Below, piece after piece: positions 29,600-42,017 of a DNA stretch of 64,000 bases. The position numbers were made by a program, and so were the translations under genes. The stretch comes from Escherichia coli (GTDB lineage Bacteria > Pseudomonadota > Gammaproteobacteria > Enterobacterales > Enterobacteriaceae): NCBI RefSeq assembly GCF_036507355.1, contig NZ_AP027877.1; one strand, given 5' to 3'. The notes beneath the pieces were generated by a model. The model worked only from the letters and a program-made list of their open reading frames with translations. It was not told where the DNA came from and did no database searches. How positions within the stretch are numbered: position 1 is the first letter of the stretch; every line of letters starts with the position of its first letter.

Positions 29600-31291
29600 A
29601 TGAAAACGCTGCTGATTATTGACGCTAATCTCGGTCAGGCACGCGCCTATATGGCGAAGACCCTGCTGGGCGCGGCGGCGCGAAAAGCAAAACTGGAAAT
29701 CATCGACAATCCGAACGACGCAGAAATGGCGATTGTTCTCGGTGATTCCATCCCGAATGACAGCGCGCTGAACGGTAAAAATGTCTGGCTGGGCGATATT
29801 TCCCGGGCAGTTGCGCACCCTGAGCTGTTCCTGAGTGAAGCCAAAGGCCATGCGAAACCTTACACTGCGCCGGTCGCTGCGACAGCACCGGTTGCCGCCA
29901 GCGGTCCGAAACGCGTAGTTGCGGTGACTGCTTGCCCGACTGGCGTAGCACACACCTTTATGGCGGCTGAAGCCATTGAAACCGAAGCGAAAAAACGTGG
30001 CTGGTGGGTGAAAGTTGAAACCCGTGGTTCTGTTGGTGCGGGTAATGCAATCACCCCCGAAGAAGTAGCCGCAGCGGATCTGGTGATTGTGGCGGCAGAT
30101 ATCGAAGTGGATCTGGCGAAATTTGCTGGTAAACCGATGTATCGTACCTCTACCGGTCTGGCGCTGAAGAAAACCGCGCAGGAACTGGATAAAGCGGTTG
30201 CTGAAGCAACGCCGTATGAACCGGCGGGCAAAGCTCAAACGGCGACCTCTGAAGGTAAGAAAGAGAGTGCAGGCGCATACCGTCACTTGCTGACGGGCGT
30301 CTCTTACATGCTGCCGATGGTCGTTGCAGGTGGTCTGTGTATCGCGCTTTCTTTTGCTTTTGGTATCGAAGCGTTTAAAGAGCCGGGTACGTTGGCAGCG
30401 GCGCTGATGCAGATTGGTGGTGGTTCAGCCTTTGCGCTGATGGTGCCGGTACTGGCAGGTTACATTGCCTTCTCCATTGCCGATCGTCCGGGTCTCACGC
30501 CGGGTCTGATTGGCGGTATGCTGGCGGTCAGCACCGGTTCTGGCTTCATTGGCGGTATTATTGCGGGCTTCCTGGCTGGTTACATTGCGAAGTTAATCAG
30601 TACGCAACTGAAACTGCCACAGAGTATGGAGGCGCTGAAACCGATCCTGATCATTCCGCTAATTTCCAGTCTGGTGGTCGGTCTGGCGATGATCTACCTG
30701 ATCGGTAAACCGGTTGCTGGCATTCTCGAAGGGTTGACTCACTGGCTGCAGACCATGGGGACTGCGAATGCGGTTCTGCTGGGGGCGATCCTCGGTGGCA
30801 TGATGTGTACTGACATGGGCGGTCCGGTAAATAAAGCAGCGTACGCATTCGGTGTGGGTCTGCTGAGTACTCAAACCTATGGCCCGATGGCGGCGATTAT
30901 GGCGGCAGGTATGGTGCCACCGCTGGCAATGGGTCTGGCAACAATGGTGGCGCGTCGCAAATTCGACAAAGCGCAGCAGGAAGGTGGCAAAGCCGCTCTG
31001 GTTCTTGGTCTGTGCTTTATTTCGGAAGGTGCAATTCCGTTTGCTGCTCGTGATCCGATGCGTGTGCTGCCGTGCTGTATCGTGGGTGGGGCGCTGACTG
31101 GCGCAATCTCAATGGCGATTGGTGCGAAACTGATGGCACCGCACGGTGGTCTGTTTGTTCTGCTGATCCCTGGCGCTATTACGCCGGTACTGGGTTACCT
31201 GGTAGCAATTATTGCCGGTACGCTGGTGGCGGGTTTGGCCTATGCCTTCCTGAAACGTCCGGAAGTGGACGCAGTAGCGAAAGCCGCGTAA
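29600..31291 (+). CDS. fruA: Fructose PTS IIB'BC component FruA (563 aa)
   Basis: Duplicated IIB domains followed by IIC membrane domain; CPTGVAHT phosphorylation-site motif. Confidence 0.93.
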   Translation: MKTLLIIDANLGQARAYMAKTLLGAAARKAKLEIIDNPNDAEMAIVLGDSIPNDSALNGKNVWLGDISRAVAHPELFLSEAKGHAKPYTAPVAATAPVAASGPKRVVAVTACPTGVAHTFMAAEAIETEAKKRGWWVKVETRGSVGAGNAITPEEVAAADLVIVAADIEVDLAKFAGKPMYRTSTGLALKKTAQELDKAVAEATPYEPAGKAQTATSEGKKESAGAYRHLLTGVSYMLPMVVAGGLCIALSFAFGIEAFKEPGTLAAALMQIGGGSAFALMVPVLAGYIAFSIADRPGLTPGLIGGMLAVSTGSGFIGGIIAGFLAGYIAKLISTQLKLPQSMEALKPILIIPLISSLVVGLAMIYLIGKPVAGILEGLTHWLQTMGTANAVLLGAILGGMMCTDMGGPVNKAAYAFGVGLLSTQTYGPMAAIMAAGMVPPLAMGLATMVARRKFDKAQQEGGKAALVLGLCFISEGAIPFAARDPMRVLPCCIVGGALTGAISMAIGAKLMAPHGGLFVLLIPGAITPVLGYLVAIIAGTLVAGLAYAFLKRPEVDAVAKAA

Positions 31292-31445
31292 TAAAAGGTG
31301 TGTTACAGGGCAGAATTTTACTGCCCTGTATCATTGGATGAGCGCAAAGAGAATGACCGGTTTGTGAATGTAATTTTATGAATTTAAATGGTTTTATCTT
31401 TCAGTAGAAACCTGAAACGTTCATCAAACACTAAGGTTATTTCCT

Positions 31446-31476
31446 CAAGGGCAGATTCTTTTCTGCCCTTTTTTAG
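31446..31476 (+). terminator. Rho-independent terminator downstream of fruA
   Basis: aagggcagattcttttctgccctttttt: GC stem followed by a T-run. Confidence 0.7.
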
Positions 31477-31714
31477 TGTTCATGTTCTGTGCATCCCGTC
31501 ACAAATTCCTCGCTTTTGTAATTCTGGCATTTAATCGCATTTTGTGAGCCTGCTCAAATCTGCCCGCTTTGCCTCTCTGGCGGCAATTTACTTTACGTAA
31601 AACATGCATACTATGAGCACATGTTTAAATATGAACACATGTTTAAACTGTCTTTGCAGTATCTATATTCTTGTGGATTGACAGGGTTGGTAATTTTTTA
31701 CCAGAGGACGTGCT

Positions 31715-32656
31715 ATGCGCGAAAAGGATTATGTCGTAATTATAGGCTCGGCGAATATTGATGTCGCCGGATATTCACATGAATCATTAAATTATGCGGA
31801 TTCAAATCCAGGTAAAATAAAATTTACGCCTGGTGGGGTAGGGCGCAATATTGCACAAAACCTGGCGTTGCTGGGTAATAAAGCCTGGCTACTGAGCGCC
31901 GTAGGCAGTGATTTTTATGGCCAATCGCTGCTAACGCAAACCAATCAATCTGGCGTTTATGTCGATAAATGCCTGATTGTGCCGGGAGAAAATACGTCGA
32001 GCTATTTATCATTACTCGATAATACCGGTGAAATGCTGGTTGCTATAAATGACATGAATATTAGCAACGCTATTACAGCTGAATATCTCGCACAGCACCG
32101 TGAATTTATTCAGAGGGCAAAGGTCATTGTCGCGGACTGTAATATCAGTGAAGAGGCACTGGCATGGATTCTGGATAATGCTGCCAACGTACCCGTATTT
32201 GTCGATCCGGTTTCAGCGTGGAAATGTGTCAAAGTGCGCGACCGTCTAAATCAGATCCACACTCTGAAGCCAAACCGCCTTGAAGCGGAAACACTGAGTG
32301 GGATTGCGCTGTCAGGGCGTGAAGATGTGGCAAAAGTTGCTGCCTGGTTCCATCAACATGGCCTGAACCGACTGGTATTGAGCATGGGCGGCGATGGCGT
32401 TTATTACAGCGATATCAGCGGTGAAAGTGGCTGGTCTGCGCCGATCAAAACCAATGTTATTAATGTTACCGGAGCGGGCGATGCCATGATGGCGGGACTT
32501 GCTTCGTGTTGGGTAGACGGAATGCCGTTTGCCGAATCTGTTCGTTTCGCACAGGGATGTTCGTCAATGGCGCTCTCCTGTGAATACACCAATAACCCCG
32601 ATTTATCGATTGCCAACGTTATATCGTTAGTGGAGAACGCAGAATGTCTGAATTAA
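31715..32656 (+). CDS. psuK: Pseudouridine kinase PsuK/YeiC, pfkB family (313 aa)
   Basis: pfkB sugar kinase with GGVGRNIA and GAGDAMMAG motifs; first gene of psuKGT. Confidence 0.9.
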   Translation: MREKDYVVIIGSANIDVAGYSHESLNYADSNPGKIKFTPGGVGRNIAQNLALLGNKAWLLSAVGSDFYGQSLLTQTNQSGVYVDKCLIVPGENTSSYLSLLDNTGEMLVAINDMNISNAITAEYLAQHREFIQRAKVIVADCNISEEALAWILDNAANVPVFVDPVSAWKCVKVRDRLNQIHTLKPNRLEAETLSGIALSGREDVAKVAAWFHQHGLNRLVLSMGGDGVYYSDISGESGWSAPIKTNVINVTGAGDAMMAGLASCWVDGMPFAESVRFAQGCSSMALSCEYTNNPDLSIANVISLVENAECLN

Positions 32657-33582
32657 AAATTTCCCCTGAATTATTACAAATTTCCCCGGAAGTGCAGGAC
32701 GCTTTAAAAAACAAAAAACCGGTTGTGGCGCTGGAATCGACCATTATTTCTCACGGGATGCCGTTCCCACAAAATGCCCAGACCGCAATTGAAGTTGAAG
32801 AAACTATTCGTAAACAGGGCGCAGTACCTGCCACTATCGCCATTATTGGTGGCGTGATGAAAGTGGGTTTAAGCAAAGATGAAATTGAATTACTGGGTCG
32901 TGAAGGGCATAACGTGACCAAAGTTAGTCGTCGCGATTTACCTTTTGTTGTTGCCGCCGGAAAAAATGGCGCAACCACTGTGGCTTCAACGATGATTATT
33001 GCGGCGCTTGCCGGAATTAAAGTATTTGCCACCGGGGGAATTGGTGGTGTTCATCGCGGGGCGGAACATACCTTCGATATTTCTGCCGATTTGCAAGAAC
33101 TGGCAAATACTAATGTCACCGTTGTTTGTGCCGGGGCGAAATCTATTCTCGATTTAGGATTAACCACTGAGTATTTAGAAACCTTCGGTGTGCCGTTAAT
33201 TGGCTATCAGACTAAAGCGCTGCCTGCGTTTTTCTGCCGCACCAGCCCGTTTGACGTCAGCATTCGTCTCGACAGCGCCAGCGAAATTGCCCGTGCAATG
33301 GCGGTGAAATGGCAAAGCGGGCTGAACGGTGGCCTCGTGGTAGCGAACCCGATCCCGGAACAGTTTGCTATGCCGGAACACACTATCAATGCGGCGATCG
33401 ATCAGGCGGTAGCTGAAGCTGAAGCGCAGGGTGTTATTGGTAAAGAAAGTACGCCATTCCTGCTGGCGCGCGTTGCTGAGCTGACCGGCGGTGACAGCCT
33501 GAAATTCAACATCCAGCTGGTGTTCAACAACGCCATTCTGGCGAGCGAAATTGCCAAAGAATATCAGCGTCTCGCGGGTTAA
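32644..33582 (+). CDS. psuG: Pseudouridine-5'-phosphate glycosidase PsuG/YeiN (312 aa)
   Basis: Indigoidine-synthase-A-like ORF; 13-nt overlap with psuK. Confidence 0.9.
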   Translation: MSELKISPELLQISPEVQDALKNKKPVVALESTIISHGMPFPQNAQTAIEVEETIRKQGAVPATIAIIGGVMKVGLSKDEIELLGREGHNVTKVSRRDLPFVVAAGKNGATTVASTMIIAALAGIKVFATGGIGGVHRGAEHTFDISADLQELANTNVTVVCAGAKSILDLGLTTEYLETFGVPLIGYQTKALPAFFCRTSPFDVSIRLDSASEIARAMAVKWQSGLNGGLVVANPIPEQFAMPEHTINAAIDQAVAEAEAQGVIGKESTPFLLARVAELTGGDSLKFNIQLVFNNAILASEIAKEYQRLAG

Positions 33583-33675
33583 TTTCTGACGGGCAGAAAG
33601 CCGTCGCCCGTACTGATCATACATACCGAAACCTGGCGCTGACGCCGGGTTTACTGGCATGAAGGGAAAATCATT

Positions 33676-34926
33676 ATGGATATAATGAGAAGTGTTGTGG
33701 GGATGGTGGTGTTACTGGCAATAGCATTTCTGTTGTCGGTAAATAAAAAGAGCATCAGTTTGCGCACGGTTGGAGCCGCACTGCTGCTGCAAATCGCTAT
33801 TGGTGGCATCATGCTCTATTTTCCGCCGGGAAAATGGGCAGTAGAACAGGCGGCATTAGGCGTTCATAAAGTGATGTCTTACAGTGATGCCGGTAGCGCC
33901 TTCATTTTTGGTTCGCTGGTTGGGCCGAAAATGGATGTCCTCTTTGACGGTGCGGGTTTTATCTTCGCCTTTCGCGTACTTCCGGCGATTATCTTCGTCA
34001 CTGCGCTCATTAGTCTGCTGTACTACATTGGCGTGATGGGGCTGCTGATTCGCATCCTTGGCAGCATTTTCCAGAAAGCCCTCAACATCAGCAAAATCGA
34101 ATCTTTTGTCGCAGTCACCACTATTTTCCTCGGGCAAAATGAGATCCCGGCGATCGTTAAACCGTTTATCGATCGCATGAATCGAAACGAGTTGTTTACC
34201 GCAATTTGTAGCGGGATGGCGTCCATTGCTGGTTCGATGATGATTGGTTATGCCGGAATGGGCGTACCAATTGACTACCTGTTAGCGGCATCGCTGATGG
34301 CGATCCCCGGCGGTATTTTGTTTGCACGAATTCTTAGTCCAGCAACCGAGCTTTCGCAGGTCACGTTTGAAAATCTGTCGTTCAGCGAAACGCCGCCAAA
34401 AAGCTTTATCGAAGCAGCGGCGAGCGGTGCGATGACCGGGCTGAAAATCGCCGCCGGTGTGGCGACGGTGGTCATGGCGTTTGTCGCAATTATTGCGCTG
34501 ATTAATGGCATTATTGGCGGAATTGGCGGCTGGTTTGGTTTTGCCAATGCCTCTCTGGAAAGTATTTTTGGCTATGTGCTGGCACCGCTGGCGTGGATCA
34601 TGGGTGTGGACTGGAGTGATGCCAACCTTGCGGGTAGCCTGATTGGGCAGAAACTGGCGATTAACGAATTCGTCGCTTACCTGAGTTTCTCCCCATACCT
34701 GCAAACGGGCGGCACGCTGGAAGTGAAAACCATTGCGATTATCTCCTTTGCGCTTTGTGGTTTTGCTAACTTTGGTTCTATCGGTGTTGTCGTTGGGGCA
34801 TTTTCGGCTATTTCGCCAAAACGTGCTCCGGAAATCGCCCAGCTTGGTTTACGGGCGCTGGCAGCAGCAACGCTTTCCAACCTGATGAGCGCGACCATTG
34901 CCGGGTTCTTTATTGGTTTAGCTTGA
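33676..34926 (+). CDS. psuT: NupC-family nucleoside transporter PsuT/YeiM (416 aa)
   Basis: Concentrative nucleoside transporter fold; close paralog of the nupX product in this window. Confidence 0.9.
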   Translation: MDIMRSVVGMVVLLAIAFLLSVNKKSISLRTVGAALLLQIAIGGIMLYFPPGKWAVEQAALGVHKVMSYSDAGSAFIFGSLVGPKMDVLFDGAGFIFAFRVLPAIIFVTALISLLYYIGVMGLLIRILGSIFQKALNISKIESFVAVTTIFLGQNEIPAIVKPFIDRMNRNELFTAICSGMASIAGSMMIGYAGMGVPIDYLLAASLMAIPGGILFARILSPATELSQVTFENLSFSETPPKSFIEAAASGAMTGLKIAAGVATVVMAFVAIIALINGIIGGIGGWFGFANASLESIFGYVLAPLAWIMGVDWSDANLAGSLIGQKLAINEFVAYLSFSPYLQTGGTLEVKTIAIISFALCGFANFGSIGVVVGAFSAISPKRAPEIAQLGLRALAAATLSNLMSATIAGFFIGLA

Positions 34927-34993
34927 GTTTCATTGCCGGATGTACTCGCTTATTAAGCGTTGCATCCGGCAATCGCGCTATTGCAAATAATTT

Positions 34994-35653
34994 TTACTGC
35001 ATCATCCCGGAGAATTTATTCTCCGGGTCCATCTCCAGCGCCAGTCCTGACAACTGCTTTCTGTTTTTAATGAGATATCCTTTCTTGCTTTTAATTAATA
35101 AACCGTCGTGAATGAATTGCGCGAGAACATATAAAAGATGTCGATAAGAAACGCCTAAATACTCTGCCGCTTGCGTATGCTTTTCGTGATAAAGATCACC
35201 TTCTTGTGAGAGTAATATAAATGCTGCCAGGCGATTCACTAACGGAAATGATTGATTCTGAGTTAAAGAAACAATATTACGATAATTTTTATGACTTAAG
35301 GTGACGCAAAGTTTTCGTAAAAATAGGGTGTCGTTTAATAACAGCGGACGGTAATGTTTCATAGGGAGCGCAAGGCACCAACACTCTTCAATCGCCTGTA
35401 CTGCACGTGGTTCATGGTCTTTATCGATTAACTCAATCTCGCCAATAAAACAGGGGGCGGCAAAGAAATCGATCAGCGACACGCAACCATTAGCTAGCGT
35501 GGCGTAAAGCCTGGCGCGGCCTCGCGTCAGGTAAAACAGCCAGGACGGCTGTTGCCCTTCCTGCACAATGTAGTCACGCGCTAAAAAATGAAACAGCCGC
35601 GTATCGGCTGAAACATCCGTTAAAAAGCAATCCTTAAACGCGGATTCACTCAT
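34994..35653 (-). CDS. yeiL: Crp/Fnr-family transcriptional regulator YeiL (219 aa)
   Basis: cNMP-binding-like N-terminal domain and C-terminal HTH; start trimmed to MSESAFKD. Confidence 0.85.
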
Positions 35654-35821
35654 CAATTGCTGCTTAAGATCATTATTGTGGATTTCTTTCACGATGTTTA
35701 TCCGCTATGAGATTTCTCATATTTAGCATACGTACGCTGTTGTTAAGATTCAATCATCGGCCCGGTCGAATTTTCTTTGCTGTAGAAAAAATAACGCAAC
35801 TGGAAACAGAGGAAATAAACA

Positions 35822-36763
35822 ATGGAAAAGAGAAAAATTATTCTGGATTGTGATCCGGGTCATGATGATGCTATTGCAATGATGATGGCAGCGAAACATC
35901 CGGCAATAGATTTATTAGGCATCACTATTGTAGCGGGTAATCAGACGCTTGATAAAACATTAATTAATGGCCTGAATGTTTGCCAGAAACTGGAGATTAA
36001 TGTTCCGGTTTATGCGGGGATGCCGCAACCCATTATGCGTCAACAAATCGTTGCCGATAATATTCACGGTGAAACCGGACTGGATGGCCCGGTATTCGAG
36101 CCGCTGACCCGCCAGGCAGAAAGTACCCACGCGGTGAAATACATCATTGATACCCTGATGGCAAGCGATGGCGATATCACTCTGGTGCCGGTTGGTCCGT
36201 TGTCAAATATCGCGGTGGCAATGCGTATGCAATCCGCAATCCTGCCCAAAATCCGTGAAATTGTGCTAATGGGCGGCGCTTACGGTACAGGCAACTTCAC
36301 GCCATCTGCCGAGTTCAACATCTTTGCTGACCCGGAAGCCGCACGCGTGGTGTTCACCTCCGGCGTTCCATTAGTGATGATGGGCCTCGATCTTACCAAC
36401 CAGACCGTTTGCACCCCGGACGTAATTGTTCGGATGGAAAGGGCAGGCGGCCCTGCCGGAGAGCTATTCAGCGACATCATGAACTTCACTCTCAAAACGC
36501 AGTTCGAAAACTACGGCCTGGCTGGCGGCCCGGTGCACGACGCCACCTGCATCGGTTATCTGATTAACCCTGATGGCATTAAAACCCAGGAGATGTACGT
36601 CGAAGTGGACGTCAACAGTGGCCCTTGCTATGGGCGTACCGTCTGCGACGAGCTGGGCGTTCTTGGCAAGCCCGCTAATACCAAAGTCGGCATCACTATT
36701 GATACCGACTGGTTCTGGGGCTTAGTCGAAGAGTGCGTGCGCGGCTACATCAAAACCCATTAA
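35822..36763 (+). CDS. rihB: Pyrimidine-specific ribonucleoside hydrolase RihB/YeiK (313 aa)
   Basis: Nucleoside hydrolase N-terminal Asp cluster [11 protein letters not shown]. Confidence 0.92.
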
Positions 36764-36777
36764 GTGTTGATAACAAG

Positions 36778-36815
36778 CCGGGTCAGTATCGCAAAATGCA
36801 GGCCCGGCTATTTCT
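36778..36815 (+). terminator. Candidate rho-independent terminator downstream of rihB
   Basis: gccgggtcagtatcgcaaaatgcaggcccggc followed by tatttctg; long loop and weak U-tract. Confidence 0.45.
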
Positions 36816-36973
36816 GAGGGGCAGAAAGCCGTCGCCCAATATGACATGAAGAGATAATAACTATGGATGTCATGAGAAGTGTTCTGGGAATGGTGGTATT
36901 GCTGACGATTGCGTTTTTGGTGATGCTGCCAACTTACTGATTTAGTGTATGATGGTGTTTTTGAGGTGCTCCA

Positions 36974-37249
36974 GTGGCTTCTGTTTCTATCAGCTGTCCC
37001 TCCTGTTCAGCTACTGACGGGGTGGTGCGTAACGGCAAAAGCACCGCCGGACATCAGCGCTATCTCTGCTCTCACTGCCGTAAAACATGGCAACTGCAGT
37101 TCACTTACACCGCTTCTCAACCCGGTACGCACCAGAAAATCATTGATATGGCCATGAATGGCGTTGGATGCCGGGCAACAGCCCGCATTATGGGCGTTGG
37201 CCTCAACACGATTTTACGTCACTTAAAAAACTCAGGCCGCAGTCGGTAA
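36974..37249 (+). CDS. insA: IS1 transposition inhibitor InsA
   Basis: 91-aa ORF identical to the insA at 1926-2201. Confidence 0.9.
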
Positions 37250-37671
37250 CCTCGCGCATACAGCCGGGCAGTGACGTCATCGTCTGCGCGGAAATGGACG
37301 AACAGTGGGGCTATGTCGGGGCTAAATCGCGCCAGCGCTGGCTGTTTTACGCGTATGACAGGCTCCGGAAGACGGTTGTTGCGCACGTATTCGGTGAACG
37401 CACGATGGCGACGCTGGGGCGTCTTATGAGCCTGCTGTCACCCTTTGACGTGGTGATATGGATGACGGATGGCTGGCCGCTGTATGAATCCCGCCTGAAG
37501 GGAAAGCTGCACGTAATCAGCAAGCGATATACGCAGCGAATTGAGCGGCATAACCTGAATCTGAGGCAGCACCTGGCACGGCTGGGACGGAAGTCGCTGT
37601 CGTTCTCAAAATCGGTGGAGCTGCATGACAAAGTCATCGGGCATTATCTGAACATAAAACACTATCAATAA
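37168..37671 (+). CDS. insB: IS1 InsB reading frame (InsAB' transposase by frameshift)
   Basis: 167-aa ORF identical to the insB at 1504-2007. Confidence 0.9.
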
Positions 37672-38945
37672 GTTGGAGTCATTACCTGCGTTTTTACTGT
37701 CAGTAAACAAGAAGAAGATCAGCCTGCGTACCGTTGGCGCGGCGTTAGTGTTACAGGTTGTGATTGGCGGGATTATGCTTTGGTTACCGCCAGGGCGTTG
37801 GGTCGCTGAAAAAGTCGCTTTTGGCGTGCATAAAGTGATGGCGTACAGCGATGCAGGTAGCGCATTTATCTTCGGTTCGCTGGTCGGGCCGAAAATGGAC
37901 ACGCTGTTTGATGGCGCAGGATTTATCTTTGGTTTCAGGGTGTTACCGGCAATTATCTTCGTCACCGCGCTGGTGAGTATTCTCTATTACATCGGTGTGA
38001 TGGGGATCTTAATTCGCATTCTCGGCGGTATATTCCAGAAAGCATTAAATATCAGCAAGATCGAGTCATTCGTCGCGGTCACTACCATTTTCCTCGGGCA
38101 AAACGAAATTCCGGCGATCGTCAAACCCTTTATCGATCGTCTGAATCGCAATGAATTATTTACAGCGATTTGTAGTGGCATGGCCTCGATTGCTGGTTCG
38201 ACAATGATTGGTTACGCCGCACTGGGCGTGCCTGTGGAATATTTGCTGGCGGCATCGTTAATGGCGATCCCAGGCGGGATCTTGTTTGCCCGCCTGCTAA
38301 GCCCGGCTATGGAATCTTCGCAGGTTTCTTTTAATAACCTCTCTTTCACCGAAACACCGCCAAAAAGCATTATTGAAGCTGCCGCGACAGAGGCAATGAC
38401 CGGGCTGAAAATCGCCGCAGGTGTGGCGACAGTAGTGATGGCATTTGTCGCCATCATTGCGTTAATTAACGGTATTATCGGCGGCGTTGGCGGCTGGTTT
38501 GGTTTTGAACATGCCTCGCTGGAATCCATTTTAGGTTACCTGCTGGCCCCACTGGCGTGGGTGATGGGTGTTGACTGGAGTGATGCGAATCTTGCCGGGA
38601 GTTTGATTGGTCAGAAACTGGCAATAAATGAATTTGTCGCTTATCTCAATTTCTCACCCTATCTGCAAACGGCTGACAAGCTGGATGCTAAAACCGTGGC
38701 GATTATTTCCTTCGCGTTGTGCGGTTTCGCTAACTTTGGTTCTATCGGGGTGGTGGTGGGGGCGTTTTCTGCGGTTGCGCCACACCGTGCGCCGGAAATC
38801 GCCCAACTTGGTTTACGCGCGCTGGCGGCGGCGACACTTTCTAATCTGATGAGTGCCACCATTGCCGGGTTCTTTATTGGTTTAGCGTAGTGTGCGATTT
38901 ATGAGCCGGATAATATGCGGTCAAGCGTCGAATCCGGCAACATTG

Positions 38946-40034
38946 TTACACCATTGGCATTAATGAAAGCGCGTTATCGGCAGACAAGGTAGGGTTATTT
39001 AAGCTGCCGCTGGCGCGTGAAATTGCCGCGCAGGCCATCGCAAAACGGGCGCTGTCACGGAAATTGTTTCCTTCCAGAAAGCTATATACCAGGCCCGCCA
39101 TAAAACCATCGTCAGCACCAAAACTGTCTACTGTCGTATGCGCTGGTGCGGTCAGCAAAAATTGTTCTCCATCCTTTTCGCTGCAATAAACTGACTCATC
39201 GGGCAAATAAACAAACAGTTGCTGAACACCTTGCTGATGCAACGCATTCACTGCAGCATTACGGTCAGCATCGCTGGTGATCGCCTGTCCCCATAAAATT
39301 TCCAGCTCCGGTAAAGTGGGTTTCAGGGTGTGAATATGCGCCAGCCAGTGTTTGATTTTGCCCGCTTTGAATTCTGAAACGGTATCGACAAACACCGGGA
39401 TCTCATCAGCGAGGGTAAAGACCCATTCCAGCGCCTCGGCTGTCAGGTTGCAATCAGCCAGTACCACGCCCGCATGACGAAGTAAATCGCGCGACCCGTT
39501 CAGTAGTTGCGGTGTCAACTGTTCCAGCAGATGGGTATCGTTAATCGCCAGCACGGTTTGATCGTCTCGATTGGCAATTGCCAGATACGTCGATGTGCTT
39601 TGACCATGCAAACGAACGCAGCCGGAGACATTCACGCCGGCACGGCGCGTTTCTTCCAGGAGCATTTCGCCATAAAAGTCATCGCCAATCACTGAAAGCA
39701 AATGGACGTCGCGGCCTAACAGCGCCAGATTGTGGGCGATATTGCGTCCAACGCCGCCTGCCGAGCAATGAATTGTACCGGGATGAGAAGCCGATTGCGG
39801 GTAACGGATATCCGCCATCCCGCGAATATCCATATTGATTGTCCCCACCACTACGCAGTATTCCTGCTCGGTGAGAATGTAACCTTTGCCTTTAATCCGG
39901 CCTTTGCGCATTAAATCCATAATATGCGCCGCAACGCGCGAACGGCTGATTTGCAGCATGTCCGCAATTTCGTTCTGCTGAATCAGCGGGTTACGCCGTA
40001 AAATTGCAAGGATCTCCTTTTCCCGGTTATTCAT
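38946..40034 (-). CDS. yeiI: HTH-domain / pfkB-family sugar kinase fusion protein YeiI (362 aa)
   Basis: N-terminal about 55 aa resemble a winged-helix DNA-binding domain (EILAILRRNPLIQQNEIADMLQISRSRVAAHIMDL); the remainder is a PsuK-like kinase (GGVGRNIAHNLALLG). Confidence 0.85.
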   Translation of the reverse strand: MNNREKEILAILRRNPLIQQNEIADMLQISRSRVAAHIMDLMRKGRIKGKGYILTEQEYCVVVGTINMDIRGMADIRYPQSASHPGTIHCSAGGVGRNIAHNLALLGRDVHLLSVIGDDFYGEMLLEETRRAGVNVSGCVRLHGQSTSTYLAIANRDDQTVLAINDTHLLEQLTPQLLNGSRDLLRHAGVVLADCNLTAEALEWVFTLADEIPVFVDTVSEFKAGKIKHWLAHIHTLKPTLPELEILWGQAITSDADRNAAVNALHQQGVQQLFVYLPDESVYCSEKDGEQFLLTAPAHTTVDSFGADDGFMAGLVYSFLEGNNFRDSARFAMACAAISRASGSLNNPTLSADNALSLMPMV

Positions 40035-40036
40035 CT

Positions 40037-40894
40037 TCAGGCTACCGCTTTTTCAGTTTGTTGCGCTTTCAGCCAGGCGATCTCTTCTGCCCAGATATCC
40101 GGGTTGATGGTTTCGAGGATCAGCGGAATGCCGTCGAAACGGTCGTCCTGCATGATCCAGCGGAACGCATCATGACCGATATTGCCTTCACCGAGGCTAT
40201 GATGGCGGTCAACGCGGCTGCCAAAGGTGCTTTTCGCATCGTTAAGGTGCATCCCGCGCAGATACTTAAAGCCGACAATACGGGCAAAATCAGCGAACGT
40301 TTTCTCGCATTCGGCTGGAGTACGCAAATCATACCCGGCAGCGAAAGCATGGCAGGTATCAATGCAGACGCCGACACGGGATTTATCTTCCACGCCGTCG
40401 ATAATCGCCGCGAGATGTTCGAATTTAAACCCTAAGTTACTGCCCTGACCGGCGGTGTTTTCAATCACCGCGGTCACACCTTGAGTTTTATCCAGCGCAA
40501 TGTTGATGGATTCGGCAATACGCGCAAGGCAATCCTCTTCTGAAATCTGCATCAGATGGCTGCCAGGGTGGAAGTTGAGCAAAGAAAGCCCCAGCTGTTC
40601 GCAACGCTGCATTTCATCTATAAAGGCATCGCGCGATTTTTCCAGAGCTTCAGTGACCGGATGTCCGAGGTTAATCAGATAGCTGTCGTGGGGAAGAATT
40701 TGCGCCGATGTGTAGTGATATTTTTCACAGGCGGCTTTGAATTCATCGATGGTTTGCGTCGTGAGCGGTGCGGCACGCCACTGACGTTGGTTTTTGGTGA
40801 ACAAGGCAAACGCGGTTGCGTCGATTTCGGCGGCGCGAATTGCGGCATTTGCCAGACCGCCAGCAGCACTAACGTGCGCTCCAATGTATTTCAT
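40037..40894 (-). CDS. nfo: Endonuclease IV (285 aa)
   Basis: [39 protein letters not shown]... AP-endonuclease family 2. Confidence 0.93.
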
Positions 40895-40967
40895 GCGAGG
40901 ACTCCTGTTAAACCCGCTGGAGGAAAACGGTAATGATAGCGGGTTAACAGGAGCAAGATGTAGTGGT

Positions 40968-42017
40968 TTATGCGATGACGCTTTGAATCACATAGTTAAT
41001 CGCACCACCACCAACAATCAGCCAGGCAAACAGTACCAGTGCCATCAGCAGAGGTTTCGCCCCGGCTTTTTTCAGCGCGCTGACGTGAGTGGTCAGACCC
41101 AGCGCCGCCATCGCCATTGCCAGCAGGAAGGTATCCAGCGTTACCAGCATGTTCACCACGCTCTGCGGTAACAGGTGGAACGAGTTAAAGATGGCAACTA
41201 CGATGAACAAGATGGCAAACCACGGAATAGTGATTTTGCTTTTCTCGCCGCTGTTCGCCCCAGACAGCTGTTTAACACGCGCCGCCAGCAGGATGAGGAA
41301 CGGAGCCAGCATCATCACGCGCAGCATTTTGGAAATAACTGCTGCGTTTTCCGCATCCGGGCTGATGGCATGACCTGCCGCCACCACCTGCGCCACTTCG
41401 TGCACAGTAGAACCAATGTAGATACCGAAAGTTTCCGGACTAAACCATTGAGACATCAGCGGATATATCGCCGGGTAGAGGAAAATCGCGACGGTCCCGA
41501 AGATAACAACGGTTGCAACAGCCACGGTTACTTTACTGGCTTCCGCTTTCACTACCGGCTCAGTCGCCAGTACCGCGGCAGCACCACAAATACTGCTACC
41601 GGCACCGATCAACCAGCTGGTGTGCTTATCCAGACCAAACACTTTCTGCCCCAGGAAGCAAGCCAGCAGGAAGGTACTGGACAGCGTCAGCACGTCAATG
41701 ATGATCCCACTGATACCGACATCGGCAATTTGCGAGAACGTCAGACGGAAGCCATAAAGAATGATACCCAGACGTAATAAATATTGCTTGGCAAACAGCA
41801 CACCACCGTCACAGCTTTTCCAGATGTGCGGATAGATGGTGTTGCCTAAAACCATCCCCAACAAGATTGCGAGGGTGAGGGCACTAAACCCGGCACCCGC
41901 AACCGCGGGAATGGAACCACCCCACAGGGCGACCCCGGTGATAACTGCACTCAGGGCTAACCCCGGAATAAAATGCCACAGTGTACGATGTTGTTTCTGT
42001 AAGGTGATATTCGTCAT
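40968..42017 (-). CDS. yeiH: UPF0324 inner membrane protein YeiH (349 aa)
   Basis: Polytopic membrane ORF divergent from yeiE. Confidence 0.85.

Follow-up and report, generated by a model that had tools for sequence, protein, structure and literature searches.

The leaders of the paralogous transporter genes psuT and nupX of Escherichia coli and its relatives share a stem-loop, here called H1, that is very probably a cis-acting RNA structure kept by selection. We studied it in a 64,000-nucleotide stretch of E. coli DNA (contig NZ_AP027877.1 of assembly GCF_036507355.1), the whole of which is referred to as the window, and in the corresponding leaders of other Enterobacteriaceae. H1 consists of a 6-bp stem (ACGGGC/GCCCGU) and an 11-nt loop. 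We sampled 28 leaders from about ten genera, psuG-psuT and rihB-nupX spacers together, and found H1 in 27. Its distribution is best explained if H1 stood in the leader of the ancestral transporter gene before the duplication that gave psuT and nupX, with selection on pairing having kept it in both lineages. The products of both genes are CNT-family transporters, and comparison of the loci shows that H1 is tied to the transporter gene, not to the enzyme gene upstream of it (psuG or rihB), and that it is independent of the nearby regulator genes yeiL and yeiI.

Conservation of H1 in psuT and nupX leaders

The initial annotation of the window had drawn attention to a repeated noncoding block of 27 bases, TTTCTGACGGGCAGAAAGCCGTCGCCC at 33583-33609 before psuT and TTTCTGAGGGGCAGAAAGCCGTCGCCC at 36811-36837 before nupX, and we confirm its positions, its sequences and its near-exact recurrence (26 of 27 bases identical). 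The psuT-side copy begins straight after the psuG stop codon (33580-33582), and the nupX-side copy lies between the rihB stop (open reading frame end at 36763) and the nupX start at 36863; when the two loci are aligned, the psuT-nupX homology begins exactly at ATTTCTGA, and 41 nt of the psuT leader are missing from the nupX leader of the window. No shuffle of the window contained a match to the block at up to 3 mismatches. The block is present in 5,424 of 5,426 complete E. coli genomes, always between psuG and psuT and between rihB and nupX, and its median of two places per genome means that it is not a dispersed repeat such as the repetitive extragenic palindrome (REP). Neither the block nor H1 has, in this genome set, the many copies in unrelated intergenic regions that characterize REP elements and bacterial interspersed mosaic elements.

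Constraint on the block had been argued from the greater divergence of the coding paralogs, and on average this is correct: with an insertion sequence in nupX removed (IS1, Table 1), PsuT and NupX are 87% identical as proteins and 78% as DNA, and the 26/27 noncoding match is far above the 48% identity of their four-fold degenerate sites. The coding sequences nevertheless match exactly over as many as 29 consecutive nt and reach 26 or more identities in 16 windows of 27, so the comparison within one genome is not decisive alone. Nor is the identity of two copies a clean measure of constraint, given that the two H1 regions of one genome share just 20-24 of 37 positions in Kluyvera and Enterobacter, where both still fold, and that the Escherichia nupX copy looks like a mosaic (see below).

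Leaders from other genera carry the case. Loci were gathered by protein similarity, not by motif, from a scan of species-representative genomes and from contigs encoding specific homologues. The psuG-psuT spacers are from Escherichia, E. albertii, three Citrobacter, Klebsiella michiganensis, Kluyvera, Enterobacter, Leclercia and Entomohabitans, and the rihB-nupX spacers from E. coli, Superficieibacter, two Buttiauxella, Kluyvera, Klebsiella spallanzanii, Enterobacter, Entomohabitans and Leclercia. It had been foreseen that a lack of conservation in orthologous leaders of other species would speak against the element; what we find there is H1, in Escherichia, Citrobacter, Klebsiella, Kluyvera, Enterobacter, Leclercia, Buttiauxella, Superficieibacter and Entomohabitans, with the psuT leader of Entomohabitans as the sole member of the 28 that lacks it. 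Between the psuT of the window and the sampled orthologous and paralogous genes, four-fold degenerate sites are 36-61% identical, which is near saturation. The broader claim of a constrained noncoding leader element thus survives across genera despite nearly saturated silent sites, with the constraint falling on RNA structure.

Pairing was assessed in 27 ungapped sequences, with one partner slid and with 500 shuffles as controls. The H1 stem was 95.1% paired, as against 33-53% in the slid registers, and compensatory changes were present at three of its six pairs (C:G to U:A, G:C to A:U and A:U to G:C). Changes of both partners filled 11 sequence-by-pair cells, compared with 3.4 +/- 1.4 in the shuffles, none of which reached 11. 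Predicted folds agree with this picture, as H1 appears in the alifold consensus and, with energies of -8 to -12 kcal/mol, in the minimum-free-energy structure of nearly all copies; in nupX of Enterobacter and Leclercia, where the loop pairs too, it reaches -20 kcal/mol. The loop is exactly 11 nt long in all 27 copies (AGAAAGCCGUC, 33595-33605, in the window psuT leader) and has the consensus A-G-N-N-N-G-C-S-G-U-C, in which only G2, G9 and U10 are near-invariant. An extension of the stem into the loop (G.U, U.G and C:G around a triloop) was kept in just about half of the sequences and was rejected.

The substitutions also indicate which molecule is paired. Enterobacter hormaechei has ACAGGC/GCCUGU before psuT and GACGGGC/GCCCGUC before nupX, two compensated versions in one genome, and an E. 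coli locus in our set (L001) has ACGGGC/GCCCGU before psuT and AUGGGC/GCCCAU before nupX. AC in the 5' arm has become GU in CFT073, in E. albertii and in roughly one in five E. coli genomes; the resulting G.U and U.G pairs can still form in the sense RNA, whereas the opposite strand would have A.C mismatches and a palindromic protein site in the DNA would be spoiled. Such wobble-preserving changes argue for pairing in the sense mRNA rather than for a protein-binding palindrome in the DNA. Judged by these comparisons, H1 is a predicted stable stem-loop with conserved pairing, located in an untranslated sense-strand spacer of what we infer to be a polycistronic mRNA.

The stem first proposed for the psuT copy, GACGG/CCGTC with an 8-nt loop, did not hold up. 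In 19 orthologous leaders it was 68% paired with zero compensatory changes, no better than shuffles or a register slid by +3, and it is broken by a G in the window nupX copy. Only in Escherichia psuT is its energy competitive (-8.5 kcal/mol, with -10.1 kcal/mol for H1); most other genera give about 0 to -3 kcal/mol. The two stems are mutually exclusive, and the 3' end of H1 (GT, 33610-33611) falls just past the 27-base block. When the whole psuT leader of the window was folded, the minimum-energy structure contained GACGG/CCGTC and the centroid contained H1, meaning that as predicted folds of this sequence the two are real alternatives, between which the comparative data favor H1. An experiment that mutated GACGG/CCGTC would be misread because of its overlap with the real H1 stem, which would also be hit.

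The block itself is therefore not quite the element: it takes in the 5' flank, the 5' arm, the loop and most of the 3' arm of H1, but its TTTCTGA part is specific to Escherichia and the 3' end of the stem lies outside it. The flank can form a palindrome, TTTCTG/CAGAAA, or an H-type pseudoknot (UUUCU with AGAAA), a candidate that occurs in Escherichia only and that we rejected. It was 59% paired, again in 19 orthologous leaders; both-side changes affected three pairs, no more than in shuffles (3.6 +/- 0.7), and its paired fraction and covariation score were above those of shuffles, just marginally above those of slid registers. A parallel palindrome in Superficieibacter, CTGACT/AGTCAG, has a different spacing and does not generalize.

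A covariance model built from 19 copies of H1 recovered all further psuT and nupX leaders at E below 1e-5, and nothing else in the 859 kb of related loci looked convincing. Its best match ahead of a nupC-like gene (the set covered Vibrio, Pasteurellaceae, Burkholderia, Halomonas and others) had E = 0.009 and lay about 900 nt from the gene (L065). A metagenome scan with GGGCAGTNNGCGGTCGCCC returned 120 matches, 119 of them random in high-GC DNA and one genuine, from a Superficieibacter-like locus (L139). In Rfam 15, neither leader of the window had a match within positions 30000-41000 at E up to 10, nor did H1-type leaders from four further genera (L011, L083, L084, L086, L087) at E up to 1. 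On this evidence H1 is a predicted, conserved leader stem-loop that is absent from Rfam.

Descent of the two copies

In a neighbor-joining tree of the transporter proteins, nupX-type sequences form one clade across genera, psuT-type sequences fall outside it, and copies from the same genome never group together. This topology places the duplication before the genera, without wholesale homogenization, and since the psuT and nupX lineages had already split by then, H1 must have been retained in both. The Escherichia nupX copy has a more mixed character: 23 of the 24 positions in its 5' flank and loop agree with psuT, among them features otherwise limited to the Escherichia/Citrobacter psuT lineage, and its 3' side matches Buttiauxella nupX at 11 of 13. 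About five informative sites point to a possible mosaic with a short gene-conversion patch, and gene conversion may have contributed part of the near-identity of the two Escherichia copies.

The locus varies in gene content at a site that is always between fruA and nfo-yeiH (L003, L081-L089, L212-L215). The site holds only psuKGT and yeiI in Citrobacter, K. michiganensis and Enterobacter FS01, only yeiL-rihB-nupX in Buttiauxella and one Leclercia (L088), and both gene sets in Escherichia, Kluyvera, Entomohabitans and E. hormaechei.

A proposed role in the transporter mRNA

No sigma-70-like promoter was found in a scan of E. coli/Shigella, Enterobacter and Klebsiella leaders, and in a terminator scan of leaders from the same groups neither H1 nor the second hairpin of the psuT leader, H2 (Table 1), passed; H1 is followed by GUACUGAU, without a U-tract. 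With no promoter and no canonical terminator in the leader, the transporter is most likely translated from the polycistronic operon transcript. We propose that H1 acts in cis and post-transcriptionally, through the general RNA machinery. It would delimit or protect the transporter segment of the mRNA against decay by RNase E and exonucleases, would shield the C/A-rich linker and the ribosome-binding site downstream of it from the upstream coding sequence, and would thereby fix the amount of transporter relative to the enzymes; in psuT leaders it may work jointly with H2 and with a hairpin at the start codon, H3. This mechanism, as stated, is tentative and in our estimate falls clearly below an even chance, and for the account as a whole, a selected H1 together with this mode of action, our compromise estimate comes a little short of even.

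Replacements at the same position bear on this proposal. The psuT leader of Entomohabitans (L087, 97-208) has an unrelated 14-bp hairpin, AGCGCUGUUCCCGG/CCGGGAAACAGCGCU, where H1 would be, placed before the conserved AUAUCAGGCAUAC linker. The psuG-psuT spacers of Serratia, Hafnia and "Klebsiella sp. BIGb0407" have yet another long and conserved hairpin, CCUGAAAGG...CCUUUCAGG, preceded by AAAUAAAAACGCC; the Serratia/Hafnia transporter is 72-73% identical. As the position of H1 is taken by unrelated hairpins in other lineages, the comparison suggests that what matters there is a stable hairpin as such. The CCUGAAAGG...CCUUUCAGG hairpin has no Rfam family, with the Serratia copy (L006) giving only a sub-threshold match to a microRNA family (28.5 bits, against a gathering score of 66). 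On the opposite strand, a T-run would come 6 nt after this hairpin.

Known systems offer partial parallels. Intercistronic stem-loops, such as the REP hairpins of malE-malF and the hairpins of the pap and puf operons, give unequal expression within an operon. H1 resembles them in being stable, GC-rich and free of a U-tract, in occupying an untranslated spacer between a gene for an enzyme or soluble protein and one for a membrane protein, and in having no dedicated linked regulator. It is set apart by having only two copies per genome, unlike the dispersed REP, by traveling with the downstream transporter gene and not with the upstream one, and by its fixed 11-nt loop with conserved bases. Stem-loops in 5' untranslated regions, such as the 5' hairpin of ompA, stabilize mRNA or set translation, and like that hairpin H1 precedes a membrane-protein gene, with a single-stranded C/A-rich stretch and the ribosome-binding site in between; unlike it, H1 has no promoter-like site upstream and no known start or processing site that would place it at a 5' end.

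Several observations weigh against our account. Independent compensatory events number only about 4-6, among sequences that share descent. A plain stabilizer would need neither a loop fixed at 11 nt nor the near-invariant G2, G9 and U10, and these features hint at specific recognition. Selection on the nupX copy may be weak in E. coli, which tolerates loss of nupX through the IS1 insertion of the window and a deletion in CFT073. Finally, one 3'-end mapping study has no 3'-end signal in either spacer, neither MG1655 spacer holds an annotated feature, and in the papers searched no regulator, leader, transcription start or 3' end is described for either spacer.

Alternative explanations

H1, alone or together with the linker and H2, could instead be a specific site for an RNA-binding protein or small RNA acting in trans, or for a small-molecule ligand (that is, a minimal riboswitch), and would then couple the transporter to nucleoside, pseudouridine or pyrimidine status. 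We consider this rather unlikely. The invariant length of the loop, the conservation of several of its positions and that of the unpaired nucleotides between H1 and H2 all favor such a site, and it would be compatible with the lack of any regulator described for psuT or nupX in the papers searched. H1 is, however, only about 23 nt long with few invariant unpaired bases; only about half of the sequences preserve its inner loop pairs, most nupX leaders have lost the linker and H2, Entomohabitans psuT has an unrelated hairpin in place of H1, and no match to H1 is present in Rfam.

A linked regulator is not apparent either. The yeiI gene, encoding a helix-turn-helix domain joined to a PfkB kinase, occurs together with psuKGT, as yeiL does with rihB-nupX. 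Because H1 is present with each gene set in the absence of the other, its distribution follows neither regulator gene, and no linked gene for an RNA-binding protein follows H1 either. An expression platform for a riboswitch (a terminator or a Shine-Dalgarno-sequestering helix competing with an aptamer) was not found in the leaders: there is no conserved alternative pairing of this kind, and H2 is absent from most nupX leaders and is not a canonical terminator.

The preQ1-I class is a minimal riboswitch built on one hairpin, and H1 is like it in that a small hairpin with a conserved A/C-rich tail precedes the gene for a transporter of a modified nucleoside or base. H1 differs in that it has no conserved loop-tail pairing, its tail is deleted in many copies, Rfam offers no match and one lineage has replaced it. 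That H1 and its C/A-rich linker constitute an undescribed cis RNA which responds to a signal (protein, small RNA or ligand) and tunes the uptake of pseudouridine and pyrimidine nucleosides in Enterobacteriaceae is a long shot in our judgment.

The loop of H1 has complements in the coding sequence. GCGGU (33600-33604) can pair with the Ile16-Ala17 codons, AUCGC or AUUGC, at +45 in nine leaders, and GCCGUC (33600-33605) can pair with GGUGGU or GGCGGU at +29 (33705-33710) in Escherichia, Enterobacter FS01 and Leclercia. The positions of these long-range pairings recur, but they are short, rich in GU and not compensatory, and are probably due to chance.

A transcription attenuator is less probable still. 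Here H2, with its GC-rich stem, would be a leaky terminator separating the enzyme genes from psuT, and a ribosome terminating on psuG would open H1, so that read-through would be coupled to translation, much as the intercistronic attenuator of rph-pyrE couples read-through to translation. H1 and the rph-pyrE attenuator are alike in placing a hairpin a few nucleotides past the upstream stop in a pyrimidine-related operon: H1 starts 7 nt past the psuG stop in Escherichia and 5-12 nt past it in other psuT leaders. H2, moreover, has a conserved stem and a variable loop and is followed by a short run of U. H1 itself lacks a U-tract, though, and H2, the only terminator-like hairpin, failed the terminator scan in the three genera tested. 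We found no conserved alternative pairing between H1 and H2. In nupX leaders, H1 persists without H2 at 40-70 nt from the rihB stop, and a function that is shared by all copies of H1 cannot depend on H2 or on an upstream stop.

To a DNA operator (GGGC-N-GCCC, or TTTCTG-N5-CAGAAA in Escherichia) bound by a transcription factor such as YeiL, YeiI, DeoR or CytR we assign only a slight probability. The sequence is indeed an inverted repeat, nearly perfect in Leclercia (12+1+12), and the yeiL and yeiI regulator genes are nearby. The half-site is not conserved, however; the two arms change together, wobble substitutions preserve RNA pairing and break DNA symmetry, and differently compensated versions coexist within one genome. 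H1 does not specifically co-occur with yeiL or yeiI, no promoter lies nearby, no match to the DeoR operator was found in H1 at up to 3 mismatches, and TTTCTG/CAGAAA is limited to Escherichia. Neither copy of H1 was among the matches to the RfaH ops/JUMPstart sequence GGCGGTAGNNTG at up to 2 mismatches.

A functionless remnant of the duplication, its copies kept alike by gene conversion between paralogs 3 kb apart, is similarly remote and is largely refuted by cross-genus conservation: the mosaic Escherichia nupX copy, the long exact runs in coding sequence and the dispensability of nupX in several lineages would fit it, but at the sampled locus H1 is kept with psuT only (Citrobacter, K. michiganensis) or with nupX only (Buttiauxella, Leclercia), the strongly diverged Kluyvera and Enterobacter copies still fold, and compensatory changes have accumulated where neutral sites are near saturation.

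Organization of the two leaders

The features of both leaders are collected in Table 1. They lie in a segment with psuK, psuG and psuT on the plus strand, yeiL on the minus strand, and rihB and nupX on the plus strand, which is the reverse complement of the MG1655 arrangement; the PsuT of the window is 100% identical to that of K-12. A REP-like palindrome, TGCCGGATG...CATCCGGCA, is present at 34934-34971 in the convergent spacer between psuT and yeiL.

Table 1. Features of the psuT and nupX leaders in the window, and a hairpin found at the corresponding position in other loci
Feature	Position	Strand	Description
TTTCTG flank	33583..33588	+	Palindromic with CAGAAA at 33594-33599; inside the 27-base block
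H1, psuT copy	33589..33611	+	5' arm ACGGGC 33589-33594; 3' arm GCCCGU 33606-33611
C/A-rich linker	33612..33628	+	Single-stranded, from H1 to H2; cross-genus consensus ..AUAUCARACAUACCRAAA
H2 hairpin	33629..33652	+	AAACCUGGCG, loop CUGA, CGCCGGGUUU; in psuT leaders, not in the window nupX leader
psuT Shine-Dalgarno region	33659..33667	+	ATGAAGGGA, by direct reading; includes the ATGAAG of the initial annotation
H3 hairpin	33671..33688	+	UCAUUAU, loop GGAU, AUAAUGA; AU-rich, perfect 7-bp stem; encloses the psuT start codon, 33676-33678
Hairpin after rihB	36776..36809	+	AGCCGGG, 20-nt loop, CCCGGCU; abuts the nupX H1 copy upstream; followed by AUUUCUGA
H1, nupX copy, weakened	36817..36839	+	Only GGGC (36819-36822) paired with GCCC (36834-36837)
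nupX Shine-Dalgarno region and spacer	36846..36862	+	ATGAAGAGA and spacer; start codon at 36863
IS1 (768 bp)	36919..37686	+	In nupX codon 19; 9-bp target duplication TGCGTTTTT at 36910-36918 and 37687-37695
CCUGAAAGG...CCUUUCAGG hairpin	L006 3880-3930; L007 3925-3972; also L008, L009		

Downstream of H1, conservation is graded. The C/A-rich linker is conserved in psuT-type and some nupX-type leaders and is truncated in E. coli nupX. H2 has a conserved stem and a loop that varies (CUGA, UUGA, CUAA, UUAG, AUAA), is followed by just 3-4 U (UUU or UUUU, the latter in Klebsiella and Enterobacter) and belongs to the alifold consensus; no compensatory changes in it were found among psuT leaders. It is gone from most nupX leaders, apparently by deletion between CCTGGC direct repeats, and in nupX leaders of the E. 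coli K-12 type part of the linker has been lost as well and H1 is still kept. From this comparison H1 is the persistent core of the predicted leader. H3, also in the alifold consensus, relies on the third codon being ATA (isoleucine); most psuT-type leaders have it unchanged, and it is not kept in nupX of E. coli, Enterobacter or Leclercia.

An ATGAAG and then the start codon had been described as following the block in both leaders. The hexamer is present in both, but it is 49 nt past the block in psuT (33659-33664) and 8 nt past it in nupX (36846-36851); in each leader it forms the Shine-Dalgarno neighborhood (AAGGGA and AAGAGA, respectively). We also considered ATGAAG as an upstream open reading frame and rejected it: it is not conserved, and the equivalent Shine-Dalgarno sequence of Klebsiella and Enterobacter leaders (GTAAGGA or TAAGGAA) has no ATG.

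On the nupX side, the hairpin after rihB may be a weak rihB terminator; hairpins at this position in other genera are unrelated to it. The nupX gene of the window is split by IS1 and is a pseudogene downstream of its H1 copy, and the IS1/nupX junction was found in none of the 5,426 complete E. coli genomes, from which we take Shigella or some other lineage rich in IS1 as the probable origin of the window. In the nupX copy of H1, position 36818 is G instead of the U of other E. coli, so that G36818/A36838 and A36817/A36839 are unpaired and four pairs are left, with an energy of -5.1 kcal/mol compared with -8.7 kcal/mol for the nupX copy of E. coli L001; in MG1655, UGGGC/GCCCA still pairs. The weakening is consistent with relaxed selection on the leader of a pseudogene. 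In CFT073 (L211, 6885-7050), nupX is cut down to an annotated remnant of 66 nt, in which approximately codon 22 is joined to the last codons, and the H1 leader is present. Loss of nupX thus seems to have happened repeatedly in E. coli lineages.

Implications for transporter expression

If H1 is only a generic stabilizing hairpin, it is an ordinary element, and its interest would be modest unless it proved to respond to a signal. Even so, H1 is a candidate entry for RNA family databases, and it would represent a small, mutable handle on the amounts of transporter versus catabolic enzyme that has been kept in both paralogs across about ten genera, for transporters whose substrates and physiological roles are only partly known from the papers searched. 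Were H1 signal-responsive after all, it would give the psu and rihB-nupX operons their first regulator.

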